The notes: a model not told the origin generated them from the letters alone. Positions 1-51,209 are shown, counted from the first letter of the stretch. The stretch is 64,000 nt of DNA from Nitrospirota bacterium (GCA_963710375.1 CAVPZX010000001.1:64001-128000), one strand, 5' to 3'. Numbers and translations are program-made.

Positions 1-828
1 TTTGACCCCTTCTATGTTGCCGCCAAATTCTTCGCAGAGCCTCACCGTATCGTGACTTTCAGGGAAGCTTATGGACGGGGCAATTTCCCGTGTGAGGGCA
101 TATTGTTCCATTAACCATGGGTTGTGGAAATCCCACCATTTTGAGCTGTTAAAAATATAATCAAAACCGGCGCTGGCGGTTTTTCTGGTCTGATCCGGAG
201 GGCAGCCGAGCGTCTCAGCAAAAAAAAGCACATCAGGATATTTTTTCTTTATTTCGCTGATGAGTCTTTGCCATAAACTGCCCGGCACCTGATAGGCCGC
301 GTCGCAGCGGAATCCCTTAAAGCCCAGCTTAGCCATGAATGTCACTACACTGAGAAAGAATTGAAACAGACCTTCTTTGTCTCTTGTACCCCGGTGGTCA
401 AACCTTGCGAGGTCATTCCAGATCACCTTTTGCCCGTCTTCATACGCGAATGGATGAGCAATGGTGCCGTCGGATTCATGGAGAAACCATTCCGGGTGTA
501 ATTCTGTCAGGTCTGAATCCGAGGAGCAATGATTGATCACCAGGTCCACCATTACCTTCAGACCAAGTTTCTCCGCGGTCCTGATCGCGTCCATTAACTG
601 TTCATGAGGTTTTTTTTCGATTTCCTCGTCAACTAATAATGGATTGAAATCAAAATAATCCGCTATCGAGTAAAGACTGCCCGATCTGCCGGTACGCTGA
701 ACAGGGTTGACAAAAATCCAGTTGAAGCCCATTTCCGAGGCTCGCAATAAATGACTTTCCCAACCGGCAAACTTTCCTGCCAGCAGAGGAAACAGGTTAT
801 AGATGATCATCTTTTCCGGTTTTCTCAT
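1..828 (-). CDS. GH13 alpha-amylase family glycoside hydrolase (partial, runs off the window start)
   Basis: Not in the ORF track because it has no stop in the window. ATG at 828 with GGAGGA at 835-840. Translates MRKPEKMIIYNLFPLLAG...MVDLVINHC...GFKGFRCDAAYQVP...FFAETLG...SFPESHDTVRL, i.e. GH13 regions I-IV with catalytic D/E/D. Confidence 0.9.
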   Translation of the reverse strand, partial: MRKPEKMIIYNLFPLLAGKFAGWESHLLRASEMGFNWIFVNPVQRTGRSGSLYSIADYFDFNPLLVDEEIEKKPHEQLMDAIRTAEKLGLKVMVDLVINHCSSDSDLTELHPEWFLHESDGTIAHPFAYEDGQKVIWNDLARFDHRGTRDKEGLFQFFLSVVTFMAKLGFKGFRCDAAYQVPGSLWQRLISEIKKKYPDVLFFAETLGCPPDQTRKTASAGFDYIFNSSKWWDFHNPWLMEQYALTREIAPSISFPESHDTVRLCEEFGGNIEGVK

Positions 829-847
829 AATTTTTCCTCCTAATTAA

Positions 848-1879
848 TCACTTTCTTATGGCATCCGTTACGAGCCGATAGTTCTTACACAGTACAGAAA
901 GCCAGAAATTCATCCGTTCAGCATTTCCCTTATCCCGCCAGTGATGAAAAAGATAAGAGTCATCTACAAGCGGAAGCATTCCTTCAACCGGATGAATTTC
1001 GAGAGCGAAGGAAACCTGTTCAGGACCCGGCAACTCCAGTGCTCCGGCAACAATCCTCGAAAGCCCTAAAGGCCCGAACATCAAATCCAGAGATTTTTTC
1101 CCCATGTATGGGAATGGTAGCATAATTTTGTCTAAAAAACTCAAGTGGTCCGCCACTCCGAAAGGGCTGAAGGTCGAGAGCGGGTGTGCGTCGTGCAGAT
1201 GATAATGCAGCGGTTTCCCCAGGCTGCCGATTTCCCGCATCACGCGGAGAACTTCAGCTGGGGCCGCAGCGACCGCTTCCTCGATATCGCCTATTACATC
1301 CTGAAGACCGGCATCGTGAGGCTTGAGAGCACAAATATCTTTTCCCGGGTATTTGCCTGAATAGATACGCCTTGCCTGCCAAAGGCCCAAATGTCCTATA
1401 TCGATGCAGCTGCTCACGCGCTCAAGGTCACGTGATGCCCTGAAAAGAGCAATGAATAGATCAGGCTCAAGACCCGAAGCGTATTCGATAAAGAGATAAG
1501 GACTTCCCCCGATGTTTCTTAATCTCGATTCCAGGTCATGCAGGACAGTTAAATAACTGTCAAAGCAAAAGGCGATCTCGCTCTGATCATGAATTATTAA
1601 TCCGAAGATGCGGTTTTTAAATTTTTTGGCGAAATCGAGGATCAGTGCAAGGCTGTATTCGTCAAAGAGATTTATCCATCTGGGCAAATGCACGGTTGCC
1701 GGTACTTCAGGAGTCGGTTTGAACCTCCAAAGCCTCTCCAATTCGTCCGGACTTTCAGCGTAGAACTCGGGTCCGAGGCCGGCCTCTTTAAATCGCAGGG
1801 AGGCGAGCTGCAAAAGGGCGTCATCGCCGTCAATTCTTTTTTGGAAAAGCGCCAGAATTGGAGGTTTTGGGCTAGACAT
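848..1879 (-). CDS. Xylose-isomerase-like/AP-endonuclease-2 TIM-barrel metalloprotein, function unknown
   Basis: Likely start MSSPKPP at 1879, overlapping the PWD stop. Motifs VHLP, IEYA, CIDIGH, HYHLHD, DHLSF, LEIH. Confidence 0.7.
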   Translation of the reverse strand: MSSPKPPILALFQKRIDGDDALLQLASLRFKEAGLGPEFYAESPDELERLWRFKPTPEVPATVHLPRWINLFDEYSLALILDFAKKFKNRIFGLIIHDQSEIAFCFDSYLTVLHDLESRLRNIGGSPYLFIEYASGLEPDLFIALFRASRDLERVSSCIDIGHLGLWQARRIYSGKYPGKDICALKPHDAGLQDVIGDIEEAVAAAPAEVLRVMREIGSLGKPLHYHLHDAHPLSTFSPFGVADHLSFLDKIMLPFPYMGKKSLDLMFGPLGLSRIVAGALELPGPEQVSFALEIHPVEGMLPLVDDSYLFHHWRDKGNAERMNFWLSVLCKNYRLVTDAIRK

Positions 1880-4535
1880 TTCCCTGTTGGGCCCTAGATT
1901 GAACAAGGTATATCTCATCTCCAGAAACTACCCCCTCAATGTCCTGTGGATGCCCCAGGGCCTTCTCCACAAATTGTCCTATCGACCCTAAACGTCGGGC
2001 TATCAGGTTCCTGTATGTTCTGTTTTCAGAGAGGCTAATGTCTGAGTAATCTATGGTTTTCATTATGATTCCCCCCGAGTGACCAGGCCACAAAGCATGA
2101 CTGAAACTCGCAAAGGCCAGCATCCGGACCTTTTTCGTTTGTTTATTGCAGACTATCCGGTAAGGAACACCGGATTCTCCTGCTGCAGCTAATGTTTCAC
2201 CCAGACCAATCGCCAGCTCTATATAGATTTCTTCTTTATTATAAGTTACCGGATTGATCGTATGCATTATAAATGAGAATTCCGGAACTATCATTTTCTG
2301 AATGAGCACGGCCATATATGCCCTGTCGTGCCGTATACAATTGCTCCTTCTGTTCATTACTGCACGTTTGTTCCATAACGATGCCCATACTCTGCGTATT
2401 GCTATGGCAACATCGGAAGGAGGCGTGTTTGCGACAGAATCGTAGAGTCCAGCCCCGGCAAATCTTTCCATATCTTCACAGTTTGAGCTTGAGCGTACTA
2501 TCAACCGTTCATTAGGCAGGAATTTTTTAGTGACGCCTGAGACGATTTCATCCGGCACCTCTATATGATTTACGATCTCCTGTAGTCTTCTTCCGGTAAC
2601 GGCAAAATCCTTATGCCGGTGGCTGTTAAGGCCGCTGACTAATAGCCCGTACTCCTTTTCGAGCCCGGGTTGGGCAGACAAAGATGCTTCCATCACTCCA
2701 AGTGGAATTACAAGTCCTGGCGCGGTCTTGAATCCGGCATGCGCAAGCCCGGATAATTCCTCAAGCTGCCGTGCCGCAAAGGCTTTGCCGCCGGCTATTT
2801 CCGCAGTGACCCTGTTGAGAGACAATATTGGGGGCAATTTATCTGCAGAGAATAAAACTGCTTCCCGGGCCTCTACAGCCGGCAACTGAATTCTATCCGG
2901 ATCATTATTTTGTTTGTTCATTTTACGATCATAAGAAAATTCCGGAAAAATTATTACACTGACTCTTTCGGCAAAGACATCCAGGTTAACCAACTTCCCG
3001 GCAAGACTTTTTAACTCTTCAAACCGTTCCCTTTCTTCACACGCTGTGAATGCGATATGACCTTGACGGGCGCGGACAGCCAAGTGTGACAGGTGAGGGA
3101 TTTCATGCGCAACTATGATGCCGGCAACCATCGCCGGTATATCCTCTTCCCCCTCGGCCTCTTCCAGAAGTGCTATAAGCGGACCGTTGCCTGCATCCGG
3201 TAAATGACTGATACCTTGCGCTGCAACCAGGCGGCCGGATGCTCTTCCGGGTACTATTACATCCCAGGCAGGGATATCCGCGAGTGTTCGAATTTGTTTT
3301 AGAAGCAGGGCAACGAGTTTAGATACCTGGAATACAGGGTGATTCCGGATTTCCGACTCGCTGAAAACTTTTATTGCATGCGCAGCCACGCCCAGGGCAT
3401 GACCTAAACTTTTTGCCTTTGAAGGGAATGTCGACAGAATTTTGTTACAGTAATCATCTGCCAATCGCGAACATCTTTCGAGAGTGGCTTTAATGCGGAG
3501 CAACTGTTCGACATCCTCAGGGGTAAACTTGCGGGACCAGTTTATCAGTTCGGACTCTATTGCCCGGCATTCCTCAGCATCGAATCCTCCTAATCCAAGG
3601 TTGCCGGTTGCCTGCAATAGTGACGATAAAGCCAATTCCCACGGTATCACATCCCTCATAGTTTCGAGGTGATTGTTTAAACGGCTGAGGAGAACAAAGG
3701 TGAAATCTTCCAGGCCAATGTCTGCCATCTGAAGCTGCTGTGCATTCGGTCCGTTTTCGAGTTCGAGCATTTCCTGAAATTGAATGCGAAGTTCCGTTAA
3801 ATGTTCCAACGCAGTTAACATCTGATTCGGAGTATTTATTTTTCTCTTGATTTCAAGAAATTTAGTTATAGACGATGCTTTGCGCGCGTCAACCTCATTT
3901 ATCATTTCCGCAAGGGCTTCGAGGCGTTCATCCAAAGATAACGCATTAAAAAATTCTTTAAGTTCCTCATGGAAACGCTCGAACTCCTCTATAAAAGGCG
4001 GGGGATACGCCGCGCCGGGTGCAGTAATCTTTTTCAGCAGGCTTTCAGAAGTGACGAGGTCTTCTGGTCCGGCAGAACGGTGGAGTTTGTTCTGAAGCGT
4101 GTGCTTGATTTCACGTTTAAGTTCTTCCGGGATATCATTTCTGTGCGCGATGTCCCTTATGCGTGTGAGGGGTTCCGCCCTTGTAAATGAGGCGTCGAAA
4201 GAGGGCAGGCAGGGGTAAATTTTTCTAATTATAAAAACATTTTCAGGGGTTGCTATTTCAGAGAGCCTCTTATATATTTGCTGTGCCATCTTTGCATGAT
4301 GGGATGGACGATAATGGCCGCCTTCCTCGCTGCATGGGACTTCGCCGGTACCGATAAAGCGGAGATAGACAGCTATATAAGCTAGATGATCTGTGTTCAG
4401 ATTGCAGGTGCTGTCGGCGAAGAGGTCTAGCAGCCAACCCAGCCTGTTCCTCCAGCTCAGGAACCTGCGGTTTGCATCAGCTATTTCATTTACAAAGTCT
4501 TCGCCCGATGTCAAATAGGCCTCCATAACCAGCAT
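1872..4535 (-). CDS. Phosphoglucan, water dikinase (PWD/GWD3)-like protein
   Basis: PWD-type blocks YLRFIGTGEVPCSEEGGHYRPSHHA and PLTRIRDIAHRNDIPEELKREIKHTLQNKLHRSAGPEDL; phospho-His motif LSHLAVRARQ; nucleotide-binding domain VRSSSNCEDMERFAGAGLYDS...PQDIEG. Alternative start at 4526. No N-terminal CBM20. Confidence 0.9.
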   Translation of the reverse strand: MLVMEAYLTSGEDFVNEIADANRRFLSWRNRLGWLLDLFADSTCNLNTDHLAYIAVYLRFIGTGEVPCSEEGGHYRPSHHAKMAQQIYKRLSEIATPENVFIIRKIYPCLPSFDASFTRAEPLTRIRDIAHRNDIPEELKREIKHTLQNKLHRSAGPEDLVTSESLLKKITAPGAAYPPPFIEEFERFHEELKEFFNALSLDERLEALAEMINEVDARKASSITKFLEIKRKINTPNQMLTALEHLTELRIQFQEMLELENGPNAQQLQMADIGLEDFTFVLLSRLNNHLETMRDVIPWELALSSLLQATGNLGLGGFDAEECRAIESELINWSRKFTPEDVEQLLRIKATLERCSRLADDYCNKILSTFPSKAKSLGHALGVAAHAIKVFSESEIRNHPVFQVSKLVALLLKQIRTLADIPAWDVIVPGRASGRLVAAQGISHLPDAGNGPLIALLEEAEGEEDIPAMVAGIIVAHEIPHLSHLAVRARQGHIAFTACEERERFEELKSLAGKLVNLDVFAERVSVIIFPEFSYDRKMNKQNNDPDRIQLPAVEAREAVLFSADKLPPILSLNRVTAEIAGGKAFAARQLEELSGLAHAGFKTAPGLVIPLGVMEASLSAQPGLEKEYGLLVSGLNSHRHKDFAVTGRRLQEIVNHIEVPDEIVSGVTKKFLPNERLIVRSSSNCEDMERFAGAGLYDSVANTPPSDVAIAIRRVWASLWNKRAVMNRRSNCIRHDRAYMAVLIQKMIVPEFSFIMHTINPVTYNKEEIYIELAIGLGETLAAAGESGVPYRIVCNKQTKKVRMLAFASFSHALWPGHSGGIIMKTIDYSDISLSENRTYRNLIARRLGSIGQFVEKALGHPQDIEGVVSGDEIYLVQSRAQQGNV

Positions 4536-4755
4536 TATTTATAAATTTATACAAGGAGCAGTCAGGCCACAGTGCTTCGTCTCAACTGCCACCCCAAAGA
4601 TCTTCGATCTTTCGGGGACCCCGTCTTCTCGCAAGGCATCCAGCCTTGCTCCGAGGCTATGACAGCCTGTGTCACCATCCTTGGTGTCACTTAGGCTGTC
4701 AAAGTCCGCTCAGCACCATGCCCCGCCCGCTCCTTGCATAAATTTATGAATAATG
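4533..4755. mobile_element. MITE-like palindromic element (223 bp)
   Basis: 27-bp terminal inverted repeat CATTATTTATAAATTTATACAAGGAGC / GCTCCTTGCATAAATTTATGAATAATG with 2 mismatches; three internal hairpins; no ORF. Confidence 0.7.
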
Positions 4756-4759
4756 TTTA

Positions 4760-5566
4760 CTAACCGATTATTTTCAGCAGCCTGGTGCGTATCTCTACGA
4801 GAAGGCTCTCCGGGTGCGGCCATTGCTCAAGGATAATGCATCCCGAAAAATTACGGTTTTTCATTCGCTCTATAAGGCCCCTTATACCTGTCGGGTCTTT
4901 TCCAGCCGGTCCTGTGAAAAGGGGCAGGTGGCTGTCATTGTCACCGTAATTTTCGTGCATATGTATATGGATTACCGGCACCTGAGGATCGAGCATGTCT
5001 ATAAACTTTAGGTAATCGTTACGTGTTGCTTTACACAGGTTCGCATGACCAATGTCCAGACACATTCCTACAAGCGGGGGATTGTCAGTAAGGCGCAGGA
5101 GACTGAATAGCTTATTGAAATCTTCAGGCCCTGTATTCGGAGTGTTTTCAATGGCGAGCTTAATTCCGTCATGTGCAAGGCGTTTCTTGAGAGGGACAAT
5201 AGCATCCACAAAGGCAGCAATCCCTTCATCGGCATAAAGATGAACGTTGACAAGAGATGCGCCAGTATCCTGTGCGAACCTGATAGTTTTGGATAAGTGT
5301 TCGAGTGTCTCAGATCTCAAAGGGTTAAGCTGCCACGGGGCGTGGACCGAGAGGCGGATATCATGCGCTGTAGCGGTATCCCTTATTAATAACCGTGCTT
5401 CTTTCGAAATGTCGTTTTCGTCCCAGCCGGCGCCTGACTCATTTTTATCCGGAAACCATTCAAATGCGTCAAAGCCGTTAGCTACGGCATATTCGAAAGG
5501 CTGCATCACGGAATATGCGGAAAGGGCAGTCTGATTGCCGATGCGTACACGCGCTGTTTCAATCAT
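4760..5566 (-). CDS. Sugar-phosphate isomerase/AP-endonuclease-2 family TIM-barrel metalloprotein
   Basis: Start MIETARVRIG at 5566 overlaps the GWD stop (ATGATTGA). Motifs SVHAPW, IENT, CLDIGHAN, HIHMHEN, DSHLP, ILEQW. Confidence 0.8.
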   Translation of the reverse strand: MIETARVRIGNQTALSAYSVMQPFEYAVANGFDAFEWFPDKNESGAGWDENDISKEARLLIRDTATAHDIRLSVHAPWQLNPLRSETLEHLSKTIRFAQDTGASLVNVHLYADEGIAAFVDAIVPLKKRLAHDGIKLAIENTPNTGPEDFNKLFSLLRLTDNPPLVGMCLDIGHANLCKATRNDYLKFIDMLDPQVPVIHIHMHENYGDNDSHLPLFTGPAGKDPTGIRGLIERMKNRNFSGCIILEQWPHPESLLVEIRTRLLKIIG

Positions 5567-8500
5567 GTTCAAGACCTGCCTGAGGGCGCGATTGAACGAC
5601 ATAATATTGTCCGTTGGTGTATGCGCCCTCAATATCCTGGGGACCACCCAGGACCTTTTCAACAGATGCGCCGATAGCGGCAATGTTTATCAAAAACTTG
5701 TTTCGAAAATTCTCGTCCCATACAAGCGCCTCTTCCGTGTAATTCAGGTTAACCTTAACGGGTTGCGGCAGCATGAAGCTGTCGTAAAGGCCTGCGCCCG
5801 CAAAGCCGGCAAGGTCTTCTCCATTTGAATCGGAACGGAAGACAAGTCCGCTGCCGAAAAGACCAATGCTTTTCCCCGGAAATGATAAGAGGTGAGGTTC
5901 CCGTCCGCCTTTCACACATGAGAAACTGAGCGCCCTGCCGGGGTAGTTTGCGACCAATGCCTCGCCGAGTCCTAGAACAACTTCGGCATAAATCTCATCG
6001 TTATTGTTAGTAAACGGGTTGACAGTATGGATCACAAAACTATAATCCGCTTCAACAACCCTCTGAACCAGAACAGCCATTATGAGGTATTCATCAGGGA
6101 TGCCGTTTGCCTTACGGCTTAAATACGCCCGTTCATTCCACTTGGAGCCCCAAACGAGTTTAATGCATGTCCATGCGTCTTCCCATTTTTCGGGCCAGTC
6201 TTGAGGCCGCCCGACTCCGGAATTTTCCATCACCGTACAGAGCGAGGAGAACAATTCGTCAGGCGACTCAAGGGCAAGGATGGTTTTTTTTATGTCTTCA
6301 AGCAAACCGTAGCGCGAACTTTCCGTTTCTTCCTTCAGCCTGCCGGAGCAGTTCGTTATGACGCTCTGCAAGTTCTTTGTTGGAAGGCCAGGCGAGGACC
6401 TTTTCAAAAACCCCGAAAGGCAGTGCTGCCGAGGCAGGGAGGTTTATCCAATCCGGCAGTTTGCCCTGCATACGTCTCAGGTTGTTGGATTTGCCTCCAG
6501 TGTTGTCTTTGTTGAACTCGTTCATCGGCACTGCGTAGACGCGCAAAAAAGGTTTTGGAATGGCTGATGTTTGTGTGAGAGGATGCCGGCCATGAGGTGA
6601 TGGGGCCTTCACATCTTCCCTGCTTTCTTCAAATGTAACCTCACCGCCTGCGCTGACGTCCAGTTTGATCAGTAAGCCGCCCAGAGACTTTAACGTTGCG
6701 ATCTCGTCGGAGTCGTAACAAACGGCGAAGAGTATATGCGCATTTCTGGCCCGTACCGCCAGATGGGACAGCACATCGACCGACTCTGGTGTTATGAGTG
6801 CGATGACCCCTTCAGGTATTTCTTCATTCCCCTCCACATCGTCTGCAATTACTACTGCCGGTTTGGTGAAACTCCTGCCCTGTATGGATTTCAAATGTGA
6901 TACCGTTTCGACAACTCCGGTTCCACTACTCAGGCTGATCAGCTGCCAGTTCCCGAGGTCGGCACTTTTCCGCAACAGGGCATCAAGTTTGCGCAAAAGC
7001 ACCGAAAGGACAAATGCAGGCCTCCCGCGCACCACCTCTTCGGTAAAAAGACTGACACTCCAGGAAGCAGCATGAAAGGCCTTTCCGAGAGATTCGGCCT
7101 TGGGCTGAAGGAGTTGGTGATATCGGTCGATGAAATTGCCCAGACCCCGCTGAAGGCGGTCGACCACTGCCTTCACCTGAAGCGGCCGCAGTTTCGCGTA
7201 TCGCGGCATCTTCTCCAGACGTTTCCAGTAAGCAAGACAGCTTTCAAATTCCTCGTCGGCGGCTGAGATACACAGGTTCTCAAGGGACATTAGTGTCAAT
7301 TCCTCCAGCTGACCTAAGTTCAGTTTCGGATGAAGGTTTTTTTCGACAACAGCCCTGAAGAAGTCTTCCATTGCCAGATCGAGAAAAAGCAGGTCACGCA
7401 CCTTGCTTTGATGCTCGCCGAGCCTGCCCGCGACCCAATGTCGTATTTCAGTGATTTTTTCAAGTAGTGTAAATGCACGGTCTCCACTATCTTCCCGATG
7501 TGACAATACATAATCCACAAGTCTTTGCATATCTGCATCGAACATATATCGTGTGGAATTGACGGCTGTGCCGAGATCTGTGCCGGAATGTATTTCCTTG
7601 AGTATTTCGAGGAAGTGCTCGAAATCATGCATCAGGGCCTCTTTCAGATGAGGGATAAAGCTCGGCGGCGACTTGATCGGGCGCTCATAGCTTTCCAGCC
7701 TTTTCCGGGTGACGCCGCCTGCTTCAAGTCTCTTATAGAAAAGATCAATGTTTCCGTTGCTTGCCAGGAATTCCAGATAGGCCTCACATATGACTATATC
7801 GTCGGGTGTGGCATTATTATGGAGCTTCTGATGCCATTCTTCCATAAAATGTCCTGCAGCCTCTTTGATATGATGGCGATGCATTATATTCAATATCTCG
7901 TCACGGACCCTCTGTGCATCCCTCCCTGTGCCGAGAGTTGTCATTATCAGGCGTATGAGCTCCCGCTCTGCCGGCTCGTCAATGTAGCGGCTTGCGAGTT
8001 TGTCCGTAAGGCGGCTTATGGCATGGCCTAATTCCCGCGGCTTGGTATTATAGTTCCGCTGCCAGTCCAGTTGTCTGATATACGAAAAACGGAGCCAGAC
8101 ATAGATCAGCGCAACCCCTTCGACATTATTGCTTCCGAGTCTGTCCAGCAGGTCATAGCAGAGATTGAACCTGTGCATCAATGTCCATGAATTGCGGCCC
8201 ATTTCATTTTCGATGATTTTATCAGCAATAGAAGCAAGGTCGAGACTTTCTGAAAAAGCTTCCTGCCCGGAAGGAACAGCAACAGGGATGAAGAAATTTT
8301 GTCCCTTCTCTTTTATCCAGCGCCCTGTGTCGCTCTGCTTGAGGACAAGCAGAATGCCCGCAGGCGCTTCTTTTTCGTCTATCTCCAGGGTTAACCGTCT
8401 GATATCGACATTGTCGGCAAATGGTGTCTGAGCTGCTGCATTTTGGAATACTGCTGTTCCGGCAGGATGCATCGAAAATGGAGGCACAACCCATTCGTGA

Positions 8501-8718
8501 TGGGAATCATATGTTACTCCCCAATGAAGAATCAGGGGACCCTGTATATCGGTAAGCAGAGTTATAATATAGCGTTCCCGGTCCCTGGCAACTACAACTG
8601 CCAATTGTCCTTCTGCAAGCCTATAATGGTGTTCATAAGCTATTATTTTATCAACTGCTTCTCTTTTGAGCTGTTCGATGAAAGATAGGGCAGATCCGCT
8701 ATTTTCAGAATGTTCTAT
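5559..8718 (-). CDS. Alpha-glucan, water dikinase (GWD1/R1)-like protein, about 1050 aa, with one frameshift near 6345
   Basis: Joins ORFs 6298..8604 and 5559..6407. CBM45-like LHWGV..EWVVPP..AAQTPF; GWD blocks LMHRFNL, VWLRFSYIRQLDWQRNYNTKPRE, MEEWHQKLHNNATPDDIVIC; phospho-His DVLSHLAVRARN; C-terminal VWGSKWNERAY and FRSDSNGEDLAGFAGAGLYDS. The frame stays open upstream to an ATA at 8718 behind GAGGGG. Confidence 0.9.
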
Positions 8719-8736
8719 GCTAATCCCCTCTTAGAG

Positions 8737-9024
8737 TTATATTTCTTTAACTTGAAAGACAGATAAGAGCTGAAGTACCTTAAGATGCCTCAGGAGTTTC
8801 TCGTTTTTTACCAAAAGCGAGAGGGCTACATTCCTTTCACGGACAAGCACCAGAAGGAATCCCAGCATGGCTGAACCCAGAAACGTAGAATCCGGAATTA
8901 TCAAGGTGAGGGATTCCAGAGTTCCCAGTCCTGTGACGGCTTTCTTAATCTGCACATAGTCTTCTAGTGTTTGAATCTGACCGCTTATAACGAGTTCCGA
9001 AGGCCCTTTTACTCTGATCTCCAT
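8737..9024 (-). CDS. STAS domain / anti-sigma-factor antagonist-like protein
   Basis: 95 aa; FLGSAMLGFL resembles the phospho-Ser motif; strong RBS AAGGAGG. Confidence 0.65.
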   Translation of the reverse strand: MEIRVKGPSELVISGQIQTLEDYVQIKKAVTGLGTLESLTLIIPDSTFLGSAMLGFLLVLVRERNVALSLLVKNEKLLRHLKVLQLLSVFQVKEI

Positions 9025-9099
9025 TAAAATACCTCCTTAAAATGACTCGATGATACTGCGTAAGACGCTTCGATACCGAATCTCAACGTCAATTCTTCT

Positions 9100-10776
9100 T
9101 CATACGACCTTGAGCAGAATCGCTTCGTTTCCAGCACTATTATAATATATTTCATCCACGAGGGAACGCGCCATCTTCAGTCCTCTACCGTCCACGAATT
9201 CAGGATTGCGAATAGTGTCCCTTAAAATGGTTGTATCGAATCCGGCGCCTTCATCACACACCCGTAACACGGCAAATTCATTGTTGTTATCGACGAGAGC
9301 AGATAAAGTGATGGTTATCCGGGCATGCACATCCCTTTCCTTCGTCATAAGGTATTCTTCGTACTCACCTGCCTTGGCAAGCTTGTTTTTCAGGAGAGAA
9401 CTTATGTTCAGGCTGCCGTGCTCATAGGCGTTCATGATGATCTCTGTATATGCATTGACGAATTCCATGACAAATTCAAAATCGTATCCTGCCGAAGTCA
9501 GAATGCTTTCTACGTCCAGTATTGACCGATTCACTTCCTCAAATAAGGCATTTATACTAAACGATTTCTCCCAGAGAGTATCTCCCTCGAGCTTCCTGAG
9601 AAAAAACATAGTAAGATCATCCTGCATATCACTCATTCTCTCCGAGAACCGGTCGTAGAACATATGGATGAACGAGGAGGAAACAAAATCTCCATCGAGA
9701 TATTCGTCATAAAGCGGGTCAATCAACCCGTCGCTGCATATAAGTATTTTCCTGGTCCGGTGCAATGAGAATTGTTGAACCTCCAGTTCATTAGTACATT
9801 TCATAATCGGCATATTATTACCATGCAGTTTTAGCACGGTGTCGTTGTTCTCCTGGAGATAAAGGGGGGGCATGGAAAAGAGTGCAAAATCCATTATTTC
9901 GTTCTTGAGATCCAGGAGAACAAAAGATGCCGATAAAGATTCATGCTCGTGAAGGTCATTTCGGATAAATTGCTGGAAGCCGCTGACAAACAGAGGAAAG
10001 TCGAACTTGCCCATCATTTTTTCTTTATCAATAAGATAGTTGGCAAAGGTACTGGCATGGTGAGTTGTAAACGATGCGGACAAGCCCTTGCCCATTGCAT
10101 CAATAATGAAAAGAAGAACCTTATCGTCATTCACGGTCCGAACAGAATAACAATCGCCGGAGAGGACATCCTTTGGTACGTAACGGACGTTGAGGAGCCA
10201 CTCTGTTTTCTCCCCATTTTGAGCGGCTACCTCGATTTTTTTGTAATAAAAGTCATTCTTGATAATGCTCAATTGTCTTTCAAATGACAATCTCTCCTCT
10301 AGTGACCGATGGCGATCTTTTTGCTTCATGATGGTCAGCCCATTTTCGAGCAGTTTCTGACGTTCCACGATAATGCGTTGAAGTGCTATCTCAAACGCAT
10401 CAAATAATTTGTCCGTCTTTAATGGTTTAACGATAAACTGTGTGACCCCGATATTTATTGCATCGAAAATTATCGGGTCATCGGCAGGAGAGACAATAAA
10501 AATGACCGGAATCTTCTTGTTTGTTTTTCTGATTTCTTTTAGCATATCCAATCCGCTCAGGGTGGGTAGTTCATTATCTATGATAACTATATCGACAGGG
10601 CCTTGGTGGAACTTTTCGAGTGCCGCTTCGGCCCGTTCCTCGATGACCATTCTCTTGAATAGACTGGAAACGATACTGTTGAAGACGCCTTTTATTGTCG
10701 CATCGTTCGAAACCCCGATGATGGAGAGGAGCTTGGTGATTTTTCTTACGTCGTCAAAACCATTCATTGTTCTCAA
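9100..10776 (-). CDS. Receiver + SpoIIE-type PP2C phosphatase + HATPase_c (anti-sigma kinase-like) fusion
   Basis: Receiver IVIIDNELPTLSGLD...KP; PP2C SGDCY, IDAMGKG, CSDGL, QDDLT; ATPase EIIMNAYEHG, DEGAGFD, GRGL. Confidence 0.85.
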   Translation of the reverse strand: MRTMNGFDDVRKITKLLSIIGVSNDATIKGVFNSIVSSLFKRMVIEERAEAALEKFHQGPVDIVIIDNELPTLSGLDMLKEIRKTNKKIPVIFIVSPADDPIIFDAINIGVTQFIVKPLKTDKLFDAFEIALQRIIVERQKLLENGLTIMKQKDRHRSLEERLSFERQLSIIKNDFYYKKIEVAAQNGEKTEWLLNVRYVPKDVLSGDCYSVRTVNDDKVLLFIIDAMGKGLSASFTTHHASTFANYLIDKEKMMGKFDFPLFVSGFQQFIRNDLHEHESLSASFVLLDLKNEIMDFALFSMPPLYLQENNDTVLKLHGNNMPIMKCTNELEVQQFSLHRTRKILICSDGLIDPLYDEYLDGDFVSSSFIHMFYDRFSERMSDMQDDLTMFFLRKLEGDTLWEKSFSINALFEEVNRSILDVESILTSAGYDFEFVMEFVNAYTEIIMNAYEHGSLNISSLLKNKLAKAGEYEEYLMTKERDVHARITITLSALVDNNNEFAVLRVCDEGAGFDTTILRDTIRNPEFVDGRGLKMARSLVDEIYYNSAGNEAILLKVV

Positions 10777-11656
10777 TTATTTCGAGGGCTTCCTCTTCTA
10801 AAATCCCGATGTCCACGGGGTTCAAATGGAGTTCCTCAAGGGTTATTTTATGATGATAGGGCCATTCTGCTTCATCCTGGTGGAACTTATAGTTTTCGGG
10901 ATCGCAGGCCTGACAGATGAATTCCGAGAGGAAAAGAATGGCGGTCAAATGTTTTTGGTTGGTATCTTTCAGTGCATACATGGATGTATCGTGGTGGTTC
11001 AGGATAACTGTAAGTATCGTATCCGATAGCCCCCATGACTTAGCCATCAGATAACTCATAATGCAATGGTTGGTATGGTAACGGCTCGTTTCAAAGCCGA
11101 TGACCGATTCGAAATTGTCGGGGATTGCTTCCAAGGGCGTTGACGGCATAGCATAATCCGCCATTTTTGCATAACTCGTGTATTTTTTCATTAAAAGGGG
11201 AATACCGCAATCATGAAAAAGGCCGATTACATATGCTTCTTCTTCGAAAGCTAGTTTGAGTTTATGGGCAAAATGAATGCAGATGGCAGCCACGGTAGAT
11301 GAATGCCGCCTGAATTTGTCCAGGATTTGGTTGGCGCCGCCTCCGATGGCATTAAACAGAGATGATGTCAGCACGAGCGAATAGAAGTTGCGGAGACCCA
11401 GGATGTCGAGAGCGTGATGTATAGAGTCTGTTTTCATACCGCCAAAAAAAGGAGAGTTTGCAATTTTCAGGATCGCTGCCGAAAGTGCCACATCTTTACT
11501 AACTGAATCTGCAACCCTGCTGAAATCAGGGCCTGATTTTGACAACTCGTTTCGTATATCGATGAGGGCGTTAGGCAGAGGAGGGATACCGACCTGTCGT
11601 ACGATCTCCTCCGCCTTCCTGATAGTGTCATGAATATTGAAGTTACCCTGCGCCAT
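10754..11656 (-). CDS. HDOD domain protein
   Basis: IPPLP, DVALSAAILKIANSPFFG, GLFHDCG, WGLSDTILTVILNHH. Confidence 0.88.
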   Translation of the reverse strand: MAQGNFNIHDTIRKAEEIVRQVGIPPLPNALIDIRNELSKSGPDFSRVADSVSKDVALSAAILKIANSPFFGGMKTDSIHHALDILGLRNFYSLVLTSSLFNAIGGGANQILDKFRRHSSTVAAICIHFAHKLKLAFEEEAYVIGLFHDCGIPLLMKKYTSYAKMADYAMPSTPLEAIPDNFESVIGFETSRYHTNHCIMSYLMAKSWGLSDTILTVILNHHDTSMYALKDTNQKHLTAILFLSEFICQACDPENYKFHQDEAEWPYHHKITLEELHLNPVDIGILEEEALEIIENNEWF

Positions 11657-11724
11657 AACAGCTGTTAACGATACTCCTTCTTCACTAAGTACTGGTCGGT
11701 TTTTACGATGTCGGGAACCATTGT

Positions 11725-13361
11725 TCAGCTCAACGTGAACGCAGAAGTTTTGTCTCTCAGTTTTTCCAGCAGCATGACCAGATTATCCGTTTCATTGCCT
11801 ATCGCCTTCACCATATCCTCTACATTCTTCGACACTGACAACGTTTTGTCGATATTGATAGATACGTCAAGAGACCCGATGGTATGCTCGTTCACAGACT
11901 GCGGTTATCTTGTTTATCTGAGCATGCGCCTCGTTTATCGCAGCGACTATCAATCCCAGGTTGTCACCTACTTCGCTGATTTGCTGTGTCGCGCTCGTTA
12001 CTTCCTCTGATGCCTTCTCCATGGATACAGTTGTTGTTTTCGTTTCGGCCTGAACAGCGTTTATCTTCTCGGTTATCTCGGCCGTAGCTTTAATTGTGCG
12101 CTCTGCAAGCTTGCGCACTTCATCGGCAACAACGGCAAAACCCCTCCCTTGCTCACCTGCGCGGGCAGCCTCGATTGCAGCGTTGAGGGCCAGAAGGTTT
12201 GTCTGGTCGGCGATATCCTTAATGACCGTTGCGATATCCCCTATTTCCACTACTTTATTGCTGAGGCTTCCCACGGCCCCGGAAAGTTCGAGGTTCGTAT
12301 CATGGACCTTCTTAATTGTCTGGATCGCACTATCGGACACCTCAGCTCCCCTTTCTAGCGATTTTCATTGCAGACTGGGAGCCGGCGTTTGCAGTAGTAG
12401 AGTTTTCGCTGACATTGATAATAGTTTTCATCATTTTGTCAGCCGAAGTGGATATCGTGCCTACCTGTTGAAACTGGACAATTGTTTCAGCCTTTGAACT
12501 TTCAATTTTGACCTTCATGATATCAATAGCAGCCATAACATCATGCATCACTTCGAAAATAGATTGAATGATGGCGTTCAATGACCCCACAACTTTATTT
12601 ATACTTTTTGAGAGTTGTCCAATTTCATCATTGTTTGCATAATCGATTGATACCCTCAAATCGCCATTAGCGAGGGTTTCCACTTCTGAAACCATGCGTG
12701 ACAACGGTTTAGTTATGCTGCGGGAGAACAACCAGCCTGCAGTGGCCATTAGTGCCATGACCAGACTCGTAAATATTGCAACTTTCCAGGCAATTCCCCT
12801 GAACTCCGTGGACACATCATCCAGGTAAACGCCGGTCCCTATTATCCATCCCCATGGTTCAAATCCCATGACATAAGATATTTTCTGGACAGGATCTTTG
12901 AAATCGGGTTTTGGCCATAAGTAATCGACAAAACCGGCTTTATTTTTTTCCACCGTCTCAACAAATTCGACGAAAAGCTTTTTGCCTTCCGGATCCTTGA
13001 AATCGGAGAGATCTTTGCCGTCAAGTTCAGGCTTATAAGGATGCATCACCATTCTGGGCTGCATATCGGTTATAAAGAAATATTCCTTTGAATCATATCT
13101 CAACGATTTGAGAACTGTAATAGCAGTTGTCTTGGCATCTTGCTCCGAAATATTTCCTGTTTTTGAAAGGTTATAGAAATGTTCAAGGACGCTATAGCCC
13201 GTTTCGACGATCTGTCGTGTTTTTACGCGTTTTTCATTAAGCATCGTGCTATGAATAACGTTAAGCAGTCCCCCTATTATGATTCCCATACCTAACAACG
13301 CAATAACGACTATAATCCACAGTTTGAGTTTCAGTGTCAGGCTTTGTGTTAATTTCCCCAT
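11725..13361 (-). CDS. Methyl-accepting chemotaxis protein (Cache + HAMP + MA domain), two frameshifts near 12350 and 11898
   Basis: Cache-like [28 protein letters not shown]; signalling motif [38 protein letters not shown]; the C-terminus continues in a shifted frame to TGA at 11725. Confidence 0.85.
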
Positions 13362-19643: not shown

Positions 19644-21346
19644 TTATCTAATATAAGCCTCTGTTACGTATCTTCTCATCATCCTATGGGAATTGAAGTA
19701 ATAGGCATTTTTGCCGATGGCGTTCTGCATGACCCTTATCCAAAGAGGCTTTTCATTATAAAACATCGGCATGATAATGCTCTCAAGCTTGTAATACAGG
19801 TCATCTGCGTCACGGGCCGGATCGGCAGGGACATTGGGCGACGGCCCTATGGCCCATCCGGTAAACCCTTCGATATGTCCTTCGATCCACCATCCGTCGA
19901 GCACACTGAAATTCGGGACTCCGTTATGCGTTGCCTTCATTCCGCTGGTTCCTGAGGCCTCGAGCGGCCTGAGCGGTGTATTGAGCCAAACATCGACACC
20001 TGATGTGATTTTAAGTGCGATATCCATACTATAATTCTTCAGAAATACTATGCGTATCTTGTGCTTGAGCCGCTCTTTAATTTCAAAGATGTGCTGTATC
20101 AGCTTTTTACCCGATTCATCATGCGGATGGGCCTTTCCCGCATATACAATTTGAAGTCTTCCTTCAGCCATGCGCGCCAACCGGTCCATATCGGTAAAAA
20201 GCAGGTCTGCTCTTTTATAAGCAGTTGCCCTCCTGGCGAATCCGATGGTAAAAGTATCATAATTCATACCCGCCTGCGTCTCGCGGTTTACATAGTCGAT
20301 AAGTTGCCGTTTCGCTTCCATATGCGCTTCCCATAGCTCATTGTCCGGGATGCGACCGACCCTTACGAAGATCTCGGGCTCATTGGCCCAGCCAGGCAGG
20401 TATTTATCATAGAGTCTTTTAAAACTGTCGCACGTCCAGGTAAAGGAATGTACCCCGTTTGTTATGGCATGGATGGCGTATCCGGGAAACATACTCTGAG
20501 AAACCTCGCCGTGTTTTTTTGCCACTCCGTTTATATAGTTGCAGAGATTCAGGGCGAGCAGCGTTAAATTAAGGTAGTCCTGTCCGGCAAATTCTTTTAC
20601 AGCGCTTAGAGGAATGATCTCTTCCATTATGCGCTGCACCGTTTCATACGTAAACTTGTCATGCCCTGCAGCCACAGGGGTGTGAGTGGTAAAAACGCAT
20701 AAACTCCTAACCTTCTCGACATCCCATACGAGATTCTCGTCCCACACTTCTTCAATATCTTTTTTGTACCTTTTGAGTAATTCAAGTATCAGGAGGCTCG
20801 AATGCCCCTCGTTCATGTGATATTTCTTGATTTGGAATCCCACTCTTCAAGCATTCGTGTGCCGCCTATACCGAGCACAATTTCCTGTTTGAGCCGGTAG
20901 TCGTTATCACCTCCGTAGAGACAATGGGTAATGCCCCTGTCCTGAGGCGCATTTTCTCCAAGGTCTGCATCGAGGAAGATAATGGGAACTTTCCCGCCTG
21001 TGGCACTTTCAATGATATATGTCCATGCCCCTATGACAACCTCTCTCCCCTCAATATGAACTATTACCTGTTCTGCGAGCGGATACATAAACTGCTGTGG
21101 ATCGAACTCATCAGGAAGTTCGGTCTGCCTCCCGTATATATCGAGCTCTTGCCTGAAATATCCTTTTTTTGTCAGTAAGGTTACTGCAACCATGGGGAGT
21201 TTCAGGTCGGCGGCTGATTTGATAGTATCTCCTGCCAGCACGCCGAGCCCGCCGCTATAGGTAGGCATATCGCTCCGAACCCCAATTTCCATAGAGAAAT
21301 ATGCTATTTTCGGCTCTTTTATAAAGGCATCCATACTATATTTCAT
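19644..21346 (-). CDS. glgP: Alpha-glucan phosphorylase (short type), frameshift near 20842
   Basis: IAYFSMEIG..YSGGLGVLAGD, RLKQEIVLGIGG, YHMNEGH, ARRATAYKR, PLP motif EASGTSGMK; joins ORFs 20813..21346 and 19644..20843. Confidence 0.9.
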
Positions 21347-28170: not shown

Positions 28171-28215
28171 AAACAGTAGTGTACCCAAAATATGCACCTG
28201 ATGTCATGCGCGGGA

Positions 28216-28400
28216 CTGCAATTCTGACAGTAGATGAATCTCTTTCGCTACGCTCCGTTTTGACAGTCCTAACGACTCGTTTCGCTACAGTCGCAAAATT
28301 CCCTTCGGTCAGTTTCGCTCCTGTTTCACGCTCACTCGCCGAGAACTGTTTCCAAAACTCCGCTAATGCTTCAGAGATTTATCTACTGTCAGAATTGCAG
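28216..28400. mobile_element. MITE-like palindromic element (185 bp)
   Basis: 28-bp terminal inverted repeat CTGCAATTCTGACAGTAGATGAATCTCT / AGAGATTTATCTACTGTCAGAATTGCAG with 1 mismatch. Confidence 0.72.
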
Positions 28401-28433
28401 ATGCACCGGAATTGGGATTTTGGGATATAATAG

Positions 28434-28886
28434 GTGAACATGCAAAAAAAGATCATTGCTGTCATAGGCGCAGGAAGCGCGGATAAAGAGTTGCTCATAA
28501 TAGCCGAAGAAGTTGGAAGGCTTATCGCTCTCAATGAAGCCGTATTGGTTTGCGGCGGACTCGGCGGCGTGATGGAGGCCGCTGCCAGAGGGGCGAATAC
28601 TGAGGGAGGTATCACAGTCGGAATACTGCCGGGGCTTGAAAAGAGTGCTGCAAATCCTTATATCAATGTGCCCGTTGCTACCGGACTTGGAGAAATAAGA
28701 AATGCTATAATTGTTCGTTCCGCCGATGTCCTGATAGCAATCGGAGGAGAATACGGCACACTTTCCGAAATAGCGTTCGGGCTCAAGACCGGAAAAACCG
28801 TCATTGGCATCAGAACCTGGGACATCAAGGGTATAATCAAAGCACATGGCGCTGAAGATGCAGTAAACAGAGCGCTTGGATTGTAA
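28434..28886 (+). CDS. TIGR00725/LOG-like (SLOG) Rossmann-fold protein
   Basis: CGGLGGVMEAAARGA, VGILPG, IAIGGEYGTLSEIAF. Confidence 0.88.
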   Translation: MNMQKKIIAVIGAGSADKELLIIAEEVGRLIALNEAVLVCGGLGGVMEAAARGANTEGGITVGILPGLEKSAANPYINVPVATGLGEIRNAIIVRSADVLIAIGGEYGTLSEIAFGLKTGKTVIGIRTWDIKGIIKAHGAEDAVNRALGL

Positions 28887-28914
28887 AAAATTAACCATTC
28901 AGCAACAGAGTCTT

Positions 28915-29034
28915 GGAATTATGTAATTATTCCATAAAAATGGAATTAATCCATATCCATGATTTTTAACATTCCTCAGGAATCCCAATAAATCAAGAAG
29001 ATAATACATTGTCTTGCCTGGCATATTCCTTGCT
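28915..29034 (+). promoter_or_regulatory. Sigma54 promoter with conserved upstream module (copy 2)
   Basis: TGGCATATTCCTTGCT at 29019-29034; upstream TGGAATTAATCCA and CTCAGGAATCCCAATAAATCAA. Confidence 0.8.
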
Positions 29035-29116
29035 TCATCACTAAATCAAATGACTTCTTACGAAGATGTACGGTTACATTTTGTAACAAACATATGAACT
29101 AAACCAGGGAGGCAGT

Positions 29117-38066: not shown

Positions 38067-39540
38067 ATGTACATAGTCATGATAACTCCGGAATGTGCCC
38101 CTGCCGCTAAAGTGGGCGGCCTCGCAGACGTTGTGTACGGTCTTTGCCACGAGACTCGATATCCGGGGAAACGATGTCGAAATCATACTGCCGAAATACG
38201 ACTGCATGCGGTATGATCAGATCTATGGGCTGCAAATGGCCTATAACGACCTATGGGTCCCTTTTTATGAGCGATGGGTGCATTGCTCAGTATTTTTCGG
38301 TTTCGTGCACGGAAGGAAATGTTATTTTATCGACCCCCATTCGGAGAAGAACTTCTTTAACAGGGGTATTTTTTACGGCCATAGCGACGATCCCGAGCGG
38401 TTTGCTTTTTTCTGCAGGGCTGCCCTTGAGTTTATGCTCAAGTCGAATAAGCATCCCGACATAATCCACTGCCACGACTGGCAGACCGGAATCGTGCCGG
38501 TACTTCTCTTTGATATGTTCAAGGGTTATGGCATGACACATCCCCGCGTCTGTTACACCCTGCACAACCTCATGCATCAGGGAGTGACCGGGGAGTTTAT
38601 ATTGCGTGCTGTTGGACTCCACAGGCCGGATTATTATCTTCACCCCGACCGGCTCAGGGATAACTTCAATCATTCCGCATTGAACCTCATGAAGGCCGGT
38701 ATTGTATATTCGAATTTTGTGACTACCGTGTCTCCCAGTTATGCATGGGAGATCAAGCATTCCGAACTGTCATACGGACTCGGTCACACCCTTCACGTCC
38801 ATGGGCAGAAGTTCGGTGGTATCCTTAACGGCATTGACTACGACGTATGGAACCCCGAGATCGACCGGTACATCCCATACCGGTATAAAATAGAAACGAT
38901 TCAGGACAAATACGGTAACAAAGAGGCACTTCGCAACAGGCTTCTCCTCCGGCATGTTTATAAGCCCATCGTATCGTACATAGGCAGACTGGACCAACAA
39001 AAAGGGGTAGGACTGATAAGGGATGCAATATTCTATTGCCTGTCAAACGGCTGCCAATTCGTCCTTCTTGGTTCTGGTCCGGACCACGGTATTCACAATC
39101 ATTTTCTCCATCTCAAGCACCAGCTGAATGACAACCCCGACTGCCATATCGAGATCGGATTTAACGAGGAACTCTCGCACCTCATATATGCCGGATCGGA
39201 TATGATAATTGTCCCCAGCCTGTTCGAGCCCTGCGGGCTGACCCAAATGATAGCCCTGAAATACGGGACAGTGCCTGTAGTGAGGGCGACCGGTGGTTTG
39301 CGGGACACGGTCTTTGATGCCGACTATAGCCATAGGCCCTATCACGAGCGGAACGGATATGTATTCAACGACTTCAATTTCGAGGGAATGCAGTCGGCGC
39401 TTACGCGCGCAATCGGCATGTGGTATTCTTATCCGCAACACTTCAGGGAACTGATGGTAAACGGCATGCGCTATGATTTTTCATGGAACCACCCCGCATA
39501 CCACTACCTGAATATCTATGCACATATCAGGGACAAGTGA
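38067..39540 (+). CDS. glgA: Glycogen/starch synthase (GT5, GlgA2-like), frameshift near 38153
   Basis: True start ATG 38067 gives MYIVMITPECAPAAKVGGLADVVYGL (KxGGL ADP-glucose motif), then shifts into ORF 38095..39540 with HCHDWQTG, RLDQQKG, PSLFEPCGLTQM. Confidence 0.92.
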
Positions 39541-41702: not shown

Positions 41703-41822
41703 AGCAAGTGCTATGCCAGGCTAGACGATGCATTATCCTTTTGATTTATTGGGATTTCTGAGAAATGTTACACAACGTGGATGTGGATTAATTCCAATGT
41801 TTTTGGAAAAATTCCATAATTG
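41703..41822 (-). promoter_or_regulatory. Sigma54 promoter with conserved upstream module (copy 3)
   Basis: CTGGCATAGCACTTGCT on the minus strand at 41703-41719; upstream TGGAATTTTTCCA, TGGAATTAATCCA and CTCAGAAATCCCAATAAATCAA. Confidence 0.8.
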
Positions 41823-41832
41823 CATATTGTCT

Positions 41833-42735
41833 TCAGGAATCTAAAGAAATTGAACCTGCCTGAGTCCTGCGCGAACCGTTGACACCTGCTAGTGGAAAAT
41901 CCCGGAGATGAGCATCCAGCAGAGCACTTACTGCATCTCCGGATGCAAGTTTTATTTTTATTGTGCGGTAGATCAGCGCTGACGGCAATGAAACAATAAA
42001 TATATCGACCCACCCCAGCATGTATTCGCGGATTGCGAAGGTTACAGAGATATTGAAAACCAGAATTCCGGCAAAAAGCATGGGACCCACAAGGTATCTC
42101 CATGGATAATGATATCCAGTATAGTCAGAGGTACCGGTCCGGTATAGGTAATAATCGATTTTCTGCAAGGCCCAGATCATAAGGAAACCTACCACGACCC
42201 AGCCGGCGAAATTTGAGATGGGAACGCCGAAATATACTCCCCTCTCAGGGTACCCATAAATCTGTCCCAGAAACCACTTGTTGCCTACAAGTGCAACAGG
42301 ATCGATAATGATATCGAGGTAAACAAAGAGGATCGCCCCGAGTATTCTGACAGCAGGTGAATTTCTGATTTCCCTTGTTTCAAGAATATATAGCGTTTTC
42401 TTCAGGCGCATGACCGGAGCACTGACAAGGAGGGCCACGGAGTAACTTGCATACGCAAGGAATACATAGCTCATCGAATCTATCAGGGGTACTCCGAGCA
42501 CCCAGATTTCGCTGCCTTTTGTCTGCTCAATATAGAAGTAATATCCGTATGGAATGCCGTTGTGAATTGAGGAGTATTCCGACAGCCAGGCAATTCCGTA
42601 TCCTGCAACTGAGAAAAGCAGCGCTCTTTTTAATCCCAGGTGAAGCGAACAGCCCAGCATATAGATCAACAGGAACACAAATACGTACGGTCTCAACGCA
42701 ATTGTGTGCAGGACAAGCAGAAGAAAGTCTGCCAT
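41833..42735 (-). CDS. CruF-like carotenoid biosynthesis (hydratase family) membrane protein
   Basis: E..SIHNGIPYGYYFY, LGVPL, LDIIIDPVAL, YFGVPISNFAGW. Confidence 0.75.
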   Translation of the reverse strand: MADFLLLVLHTIALRPYVFVFLLIYMLGCSLHLGLKRALLFSVAGYGIAWLSEYSSIHNGIPYGYYFYIEQTKGSEIWVLGVPLIDSMSYVFLAYASYSVALLVSAPVMRLKKTLYILETREIRNSPAVRILGAILFVYLDIIIDPVALVGNKWFLGQIYGYPERGVYFGVPISNFAGWVVVGFLMIWALQKIDYYLYRTGTSDYTGYHYPWRYLVGPMLFAGILVFNISVTFAIREYMLGWVDIFIVSLPSALIYRTIKIKLASGDAVSALLDAHLRDFPLAGVNGSRRTQAGSISLDS

Positions 42736-43739: not shown

Positions 43740-43755
43740 AAATGTTTAACCCCCC

Positions 43756-48336: not shown

Positions 48337-48468
48337 TTTTCTCCTCTTGTTTGAGAGCATCTTTACAAAAAAAGTTAGATGGAAATTTTTTAATAAGTGC
48401 AATATATCCTAATGACTTAAGACTAATAATTTATTATAGTATACTGTTTTTTTGCAAGTTTAAGAAGC

Positions 48469-51132: not shown

Positions 51133-51209
51133 TAACTCACCAGTATTTCAAAAAGAATTTTTTTAAAGTATAATTTATAATAATAACATAACGCTGAACT
51201 GGGGGGTCG

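Follow-up and report, generated by a model that had tools for sequence, protein, structure and literature searches.

Does a bacterium run the starch phosphorylation system of plants and algae on its own storage glucan? This question is raised by the beginning of a 64,000 nucleotide (nt) stretch of a Nitrospirota genome (GCA_963710375.1, CAVPZX010000001.1:64001-128000; G000:C1:64001-128000 in our numbering), referred to here as the window. The genome is 3.19 Mb in 9 contigs and is 98.8% complete. Five co-oriented genes on the minus strand encode, in order, a GWD, a first TIM barrel protein (TIM1), a PWD, a second TIM barrel protein (TIM2), and a GH13 enzyme (Table 1). Their order and shared orientation agree with the original prediction, which had been made from the sequence alone. 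The operon is intact and conserved, and it brings both starch-type dikinases together in a bacterium. Judged by domain content, motifs, and phylogeny, the dikinases are orthologs of plant and algal GWD and PWD, not PEP synthase, and they are very likely to be glucan kinases. We consider it rather probable that the operon would drive a reversible phosphorylation cycle on the cell's stored alpha-glucan, in the cytoplasm, with the two barrels as predicted phosphatases.

The GWD matches PF23166, PF22973, and PF01326, all above cut-off and in the plant order (scored on P0397, the unbroken 1014 aa version in the protein database). Its central domain (residues 124-548) aligns with that of the solved potato StGWD1 (PDB 9HA9; phmmer E 1.6e-85). 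Identity is 42% to the Brassica protein, 40% to Chlamydomonas, 38% to Cyanidiococcus, and 42% to Cyanophora, and 70-83% to GWDs in five other Nitrospirota genome loci, one of them from Dissulfurispiraceae. The phospho-His is H614 (P0397 numbering). The StGWD1 residues proposed for catalysis, E900, E901, R904, R923, W931, V989, L990, and H992 (PMC13553574), correspond by spacing to E522, E523, R526, R545, W553, V611, L612, and H614. The start is probably an ATA at 8718 that follows a GAGGGG ribosome binding site and aligns with the Met of relatives; a TTG at 8604 is the alternative. The PWD begins with TTG behind a GGAGG ribosome binding site and is 39-40% identical to Cucurbita PWD (residues 14-883), 39% to the Chlorokybus protein, 38% to a Porphyridium-cluster protein, and 32% to that of Chromera. 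No PWD relatives were found in the viral contigs or in the plasmids searched.

The two dikinases are 26% identical to each other over 643 residues, and both keep the motif LSHLAVRAR, as predicted. The GAGLYDS block lies late in the GWD and early in the PWD, an arrangement that holds well beyond the window: the block is late in 107/120 long GWD matches (13 unscored) and early in 25/43 CBM20-PWDs (18 unscored), and the opposite order occurs in no scored GWD or PWD. Models for PEP synthase, PPDK, and rifampin phosphotransferase match the ATP domain only, with best scores of 67 and 128 bits versus cut-offs of 883 and 866. The family is large, with 1288 proteins at E 1e-20 for the PWD query and 1739 at E 1e-30 for the GWD query (about 8000 candidates scored per query; both paralogs and eukaryotes are included, and the best 120 each were inspected). 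Some members are organized differently. Six loci (L098, L104-L108; family f6) have a stand-alone GWD with two CBM45-like domains and TIM1 elsewhere in the genome, and several of these have two SSIV-like synthases. Three others (L092, L093, L094; family f7) carry GWD and GH13 with no TIM1 or TIM2 match, one in a genome with two GWDs.

Trees were built with FastTree from 167 core regions and with IQ-TREE (LG+C20 PMSF, quick tree) from 62 of those. Rows without a name were assigned to eukaryotes or bacteria from their architecture (CBM20 or length for the former, TIM fusion or locus for the latter); a look-up of 30 rows gave a name, or a cluster member with one, for about half. Eukaryotic GWDs in the trees are only those above 1345 aa, the bacterial GWDs are near relatives of the window protein, and the 62 do not include one long row (P0380). 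PEP synthase and PPDK were excluded by domain content and hidden Markov model scores and are not in the trees. In both trees GWD separates from PWD with a support of 100, and bacterial as well as eukaryotic rows occur in each clade; the dikinase assignments of the original prediction stand. Bacterial GWDs group at 98 (FastTree) and 95 (IQ-TREE). In the free quick IQ-TREE the bacterial PWDs are nested within eukaryotic PWDs; a tree in which the eukaryotic PWDs were constrained to one group scored 35 log units better and had three long bacterial rows deepest. All 5/5 topologies, i.e., eukaryotes inside bacteria, sister groups, and bacteria inside eukaryotes, pass the approximately unbiased test (p-AU 0.16-0.81; 5000 resamples, below the program's advice), so that transfer in either direction between bacteria and eukaryotes fits the data. 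A bacterial origin of the eukaryotic pair is possible, at somewhat less than even chances.

The statement that these enzymes are regarded as eukaryotic is mostly true of reviews. According to PMC13666283, prokaryotes have no known glucan phosphorylation machinery, and a preprint (10.64898/2026.09.25.754361) treats GWD as a eukaryotic starch marker. It needs qualification, since a 2018 GWD tree includes bacterial sequences, with a legend noting that some bacteria could have gained GWD by lateral transfer (PMC6260743). The word stem "bacteri" is absent from the portions available of the StGWD1 study (PMC13553574) and its preprint. That figure legend was all that our literature search returned for bacterial GWD or PWD; for the operon or the barrels, the search, whose coverage excludes most subscription journals, returned no publication. 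JGI automatic annotation names many relatives as the two dikinases. A Toulouse group is said to have assayed bacterial glucan kinases, possibly one from Nitrospirota. If so, the GWD step is already known, and the novelty lies in the PWD, the barrels, and the operon.

Gene order is conserved. Among the best 80 of 211 metagenome loci, some of them near-duplicates, the order GWD, TIM1, PWD, TIM2, GH13 recurs; where flanks were sufficient, TIM1 was present in 57/68 loci, TIM2 in 47/48, GWD in 29/37, and GH13 in 16/28. Fusions are common. Among the best 120 PWD relatives, 77 carry TIM1 alone in the same chain, 12 carry both barrels, one carries TIM2 alone, and 30 carry no barrel; TIM2 is fused to GH13 in 3/80 loci (L031, L040, L042). 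Within the genus, 10/10 genomes have both dikinases, compared with 0/23 sampled genomes from other genera of the family. Some PWD frames in the genus are about 1200 aa, which fits a TIM1-PWD fusion, and the TIM1/PWD split in this genome therefore looks recent.

A survey of 301 Nitrospirota genomes shows which genes travel together. Fourteen exceed the PF22973 cut-off; by locus reading, five have GWD and PWD, and nine have GWD only (one with two GWDs). At E 1e-15, TIM1 is found in 5/5 GWD+PWD genomes, 7/9 GWD-only genomes, and 0/287 others, often unlinked to GWD. TIM2 (E 1e-5) occurs in 3/5, 0/9, and 0/287, respectively. These are single-protein queries, by which distant copies can be missed. 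Thus, the occurrence of TIM1 tracks that of GWD, even though its usual fusion partner is PWD, and the occurrence of TIM2 tracks that of PWD. This pairing agrees with two 8 nt overlaps in the window, one between the GWD stop and the TIM1 start and the other between the PWD stop and the TIM2 start. One locus (L100) is a minimal GWD-TIM1-GH13 unit. On these grounds TIM1 is the likely partner of GWD, and TIM2 the likely partner of PWD.

The original prediction gave the barrels no role. The best NCBIfam match of TIM1 is the CbiR phosphodiesterase model (46.6 bits, E 3e-12), under the cut-off of 105. In a forced global alignment with E. coli Nfo, eight residues coincide (H75/H69, H109/H109, E140/E145, D171/D179, H174/H182, D211/D229, H213/H231, E247/E261), and the strand bearing H202 falls beside Nfo H216. 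These nine positions (H,H,E,D,H,H,D,H,E) are invariant in 44/44 TIM1 rows, and several are missing in the epimerases UlaE and FrlC. In Nfo, these residues are the ligands of three metals. TIM2 has no Pfam or NCBIfam family match, and its profile finds no sequence relative of solved structure, but it is homologous to TIM1 when profiles trimmed of fused PWD columns are compared (probability 96, E 3e-9). In an alignment-based model (predicted local distance difference test score 95.7), residues H64, H97, E132, D160, H163, H227, D244, H245, and E294 lie at or near strand ends, and they are invariant in 59/59. By motif these are eight endonuclease IV (EndoIV) ligands and one shifted one; direct alignment to Nfo is not significant. 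Foldseek with this model ranks AP endonucleases and TTHB071 first, and an AP endonuclease structure superposes with Z 19.2 and a root mean square deviation of 3.3 over 249 aligned residues. Neither barrel, nor anything else in the genome, matches the dual-specificity phosphatase domain (DSPc, PF00782). Three points, the ligand set, the association with the kinases, and the absence of DSPc matches, lead us to predict, with reasonable but not strong confidence, that TIM1 and TIM2 are glucan phosphatases. They could be at most analogs of SEX4, LSF2, and laforin.

The principal alternative is that the dikinases phosphorylate stored glucan while the barrels act later, on released phosphosugars, as isomerases, epimerases, or eliminases. 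This alternative is close to the phosphorylation-then-hydrolysis model of the original prediction. The superfamily, to which the phosphodiesterase CbiR also belongs, is rich in sugar isomerases and epimerases (PMC7733943). MJ1311, the solved sequence closest to TIM1, is titled epimerase-like, and the fusion of TIM2 to GH13 speaks for this alternative as well. Several further observations weigh against phosphatase barrels and, more broadly, against the reversible cycle as a whole. With the single-sequence TIM1 profile, UlaE and FrlC outscore Nfo, the VIA fold search leaves TIM2 tied (Z 19.2 for the AP endonuclease, 19.1 for epimerases/isomerases), TIM2 has DH where EndoIV has D-x-H in loop 7, and glucan phosphate is a monoester, not a diester of the kind that EndoIV and CbiR cleave. 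At the threshold used, TIM1 is missing from two GWD-only genomes; TIM2 is missing from 2/5 PWD genomes, and 8/14 GWD-positive genomes belong to one family, making the counts non-independent. GH13 also occurs in 13/287 genomes without GWD. As for the dikinases, the position of StGWD1 E971 is Asn here (N593; of 120 bacterial GWDs, 81 have D/E, 24 have N, and 15 have another residue or were unscored), and the window PWD (P0001) lacks any fused domain and CBM20 (PF00686), which is present in 4/4 CBM-type PWDs scanned. Against later-acting barrels are the additional His ligands by which TIM1 matches the three-metal site of EndoIV and which UlaE and FrlC lack, the Foldseek ranking of TIM2, and the fact that no other glucan phosphatase candidate was found in the genome. 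Phosphosugar-directed barrels are unlikely.

The question of substrate concerns what kind of glucan this cell stores. The genome has two glgC genes, GlgB, GlgX, two GH57 enzymes, at least two phosphorylases, and two synthases. Across 85 loci, the recurrent neighbors of the operon are glycogen/starch synthase (15), GlgX/isoamylase (8), GH57 (7), DUF4912 (6), and phosphorylase (4). The alpha-glucan setting of the original prediction therefore holds both in the loci and in the genome. The synthase that flanks the operon elsewhere (tested in L043) is closer to Arabidopsis SSIV (454 bits) than to E. coli glycogen synthase (242 bits), and the SSIV-like synthase in the window, unlinked to the operon here, is 70% identical to it. 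By the NF001905 model (E 1e-150), SSIV-like synthases are found in 10/14 GWD-positive genomes versus 1/287 others. A GlgA2/SSIII/IV group has been named, and SSIII/IV have a role in granule initiation (PMC6086201). The SSIV-like synthase favors a starch-like store, and a semi-crystalline substrate is a possibility to which we give somewhat less than half the weight; the insoluble glucan of the original prediction is likewise a possibility.

Ordinary soluble glycogen is the other candidate, with phosphate tuning solubility or branching during synthesis and not the breakdown of crystallites. The presence of GlgB, GH57 branching enzymes, and a conventional GlgA speaks for it, StGWD1 accepts glycogen too, and glucan phosphate lowers the affinity of branching enzyme (PMC13011383). 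For the debranching enzyme, the scores with archaeal TreX and with plant ISA1 are nearly the same. The operon travels with the SSIV-like synthase, however, and GWD correlates with semi-crystalline glucan in eukaryotes (10.64898/2026.09.25.754361). We regard soluble glycogen as improbable, a little more so than later-acting barrels; it is in any case compatible with the barrels as phosphatases. That the system attacks external plant starch is very improbable. The DNA is present in soil metagenomes (five runs, two studies, one run possibly the source of the assembly), and the operon includes a GH13. No signal-peptide-like or transmembrane stretch was found in the five proteins (hydropathy proxy), however, the kinases need ATP, and the recurrent neighbors are synthesis genes, not transporters. 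Because the N-termini are not signal-peptide-like, the enzymes would act on glucan that the cell itself stores.

A reversible cycle on the stored glucan could proceed as follows, if orthology is a guide to activity. GWD would bind the glucan via its CBM45-like domain and pass the beta-phosphate of ATP through H614 to C6. PWD would then add phosphate at C3 of the primed chains. The phosphate would loosen packed chains and give access to GH13, phosphorylase, and GlgX. Lastly, and this is the weakest step, TIM1 and TIM2 might hydrolyze the phosphate esters at a multi-metal site, in the role of SEX4, LSF2, or laforin, with TIM1 likely acting on the GWD product and TIM2 on that of PWD. Phosphate removal is needed for hydrolases to proceed (PMC12892837). 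The original prediction proposed phosphorylation followed by hydrolysis. Its kinases and glucan setting remain, but a reversible cycle fits better, since the ligand set and co-occurrence of the barrels point to phosphate removal. A more ambitious combination would have semi-crystalline granules made by way of the SSIV-like synthase and a two-kinase, two-phosphatase cycle; a new class of metal-barrel phosphatase unrelated to SEX4 and laforin; and a GWD/PWD pair of bacterial origin passed to eukaryotes from this operon, with CBM20 replacing the barrel on PWD. Taken jointly, these are unlikely all to be true.

The GH13 enzyme was predicted to be an amylase. The family assignment and the catalytic triad are sound (PF00128 above cut-off; D176/E205/D260 invariant in 19/19), but amylase is only one candidate reaction, since the protein also resembles GlgE maltosyltransferases. 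Profile scores are 90 and 85 bits for amylase structures (3DHU and 4GKL) and 78 bits for GlgE, and the protein falls under every NCBIfam cut-off. The gene ends at G000:C1:63524, 476 nt outside the window. At E 1e-60, GH13 occurs in 7/14 GWD-positive genomes, and given its presence in the 13/287 genomes noted above it is the loosest member of the operon. In several relatives, although not at this locus, a GT4 glycosyltransferase with a weak match to Corynebacterium-type GlgA faces GH13 (L001:21138-21827, L004:19767-20927, L092:4048-5208).

The original prediction described the genes as mostly overlapping or closely spaced. This is borne out by the two overlaps and by the 19 nt between TIM2 and GH13, but not by the gap of about 245 nt between TIM1 and PWD. 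That gap is occupied by a repeat of about 215 nt with inverted ends, similar to a miniature inverted-repeat transposable element (MITE). The MITE-like repeat has 44 nt imperfect inverted arms that include a 10 nt A/T direct repeat at both ends. It is found at about 26 loci in the genome in several length variants. It spares the TIM1 and PWD reading frames and the PWD ribosome site. No short-read contig spans it, and both flanks enter the repeat. The same gap holds different insertions in L001, L002, and L004. G+C content across the cluster is even (0.47-0.50 versus about 0.47 genome-wide).

As assembled, the GWD frame is broken into open reading frames (ORFs) of 768 and 282 aa by one extra base at 6339. 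That base is missing from contigs of 4/4 sequencing runs (two studies; one run is possibly the source of the assembly), and in 9/9 further genomes of the genus the GWD frame is open, at 1050-1116 aa. With the base absent in all four runs and an intact P0397 in existence, the break is an assembly error. A pseudogene reading of GWD is rejected on the same grounds. A chimeric assembly is rejected on account of the gene order conserved in many loci and the 10/10 genus genomes with both dikinases. Small-molecule enzymes of the PEP synthase/PPDK kind, pseudogenes, or a chimera, suggested by the ATP-grasp matches, the frameshift, and the unbridged repeat, together are the least credible explanation and have almost no probability left, given dikinase scores far under the PEP synthase/PPDK cut-offs, the corrected frame, and the recurrent order.

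Table 1. Features of the dikinase operon and of related glucan genes in the window.
Feature	Coordinates	Strand	Description
GWD ortholog	5559..8718 (start 8718 or 8604)	-	PF23166 CBM45-like Ig domain, helical central domain, phospho-His, ATP-grasp
TIM1 (barrel 1), 268 aa	4760..5566	-	PF01261 AP-endonuclease-2 barrel, nine EndoIV-type ligand positions
MITE-like repeat	4533..4755	.	Inverted arms, multi-copy, intergenic
PWD ortholog, 880 aa	1872..4514	-	PWD central domain, phospho-His H477, ATP-grasp, without CBM20
TIM2 (barrel 2), 343 aa	848..1879	-	AP-endonuclease-2/xylose-isomerase-type barrel by confident model
GH13, 5' part only in window	1..828	-	PF00128; whole protein 434 aa in genome
SSIII/SSIV-like glycogen/starch synthase, unlinked to operon	38067..39540	+	NF001905
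Alpha-glucan phosphorylase (glgP), near operon	19644..21346	-	Frame break at 20842

The frame breaks in glgP (20842) and in the SSIV-like synthase (38154) are also assembly errors, both corrected in 4/4 runs. In all, single-base errors at 6339, 20842, 30766, and 38154 were confirmed against contigs, and further errors near 12340 and 15850 probably split MCP and PBP1A genes. No Rfam matches were found in positions 1-12000 of the window, and promoter and terminator counts were at chance level. Upstream of the operon, three co-oriented genes (8737-11656, minus strand) end 19 nt before the probable GWD start. They encode an HDOD protein, a receiver/SpoIIE/HATPase protein, and a 95 aa ORF that is anti-sigma antagonist-like by eye, with no Pfam match. 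The trio is missing at the same place in relatives L001-L005 and may be a recent insertion on the same transcript. Farther away, at about 41800-52700, visual inspection suggests a hopanoid-type cluster, with ORFs resembling a squalene-hopene cyclase, radical SAM proteins, and exporters. Next to it are the SSIV-like synthase and a transketolase/transaldolase/G6PDH/6PGL block. A second multi-copy repeat region at about 28200-29050 has raised depth and joints in contigs.

The operon makes testable whether bacteria phosphorylate storage glucan, whether glucan phosphatases exist outside the dual-specificity phosphatase family, and where GWD and PWD originated. The enzymes are smaller than their plant counterparts and separate in this genome, and they would suit assays, structures, and enzymatic starch modification.

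Compared with known systems, the GWD most resembles GWD1/R1/SEX1 (EC 2.7.9.4; StGWD1, PDB 9HA9/9QVI). It shares the order of CBM45-like domain, helical center, phospho-His, and ATP-grasp, the late GAGLYDS, and 8/9 checked StGWD1 residues, and it is 38-42% identical to proteins of plants, green algae, red algae, and glaucophytes. It departs from the plant enzyme in several respects: a single CBM45-like domain (one or two in other bacterial members), Asn at the E971 position, and a gene that lies in an operon and overlaps that of a barrel; a PF23229 region and a transit peptide are lacking. The PWD has the central domain of PWD/GWD3 (EC 2.7.9.5) with its PLTRIRDIAH and QNKLHR blocks, the phospho-His, and the early GAGLYDS, and it is 32-39% identical to named proteins of plants, algae, and chromerids. 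It lacks CBM20; most bacterial relatives have TIM1 at that N-terminal place, whereas here TIM1 is a separate upstream gene. The GH13 shares the catalytic triad of small cytoplasmic GH13 enzymes (3DHU, 4GKL) and of the GlgE maltosyltransferase, but at 434 aa it is without the GlgE N-terminal domains. The barrels share with the AP endonuclease 2 superfamily (endonuclease IV, CbiR, TTHB071, MJ1311; PF01261) the (beta/alpha)8 barrel and His/Asp/Glu ligands at strand ends, and TIM1 matches nine Nfo positions. In contrast, identity in structural alignments is 12-17%, there is no DNA-repair or cobamide context, and TIM2 has no Pfam family and carries the DH motif in loop 7. Like the reversible starch phosphorylation of plants and algae (GWD and PWD with SEX4, LSF2, or laforin), the window genome combines two paralogous dikinases, glucan-degrading enzymes, and an SSIII/IV-type synthase. 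Unlike it, the genome has no dual-specificity phosphatase match and has metal barrels in its place, barrels that are found in 0/120 long GWD matches and 0/43 CBM20-PWDs.

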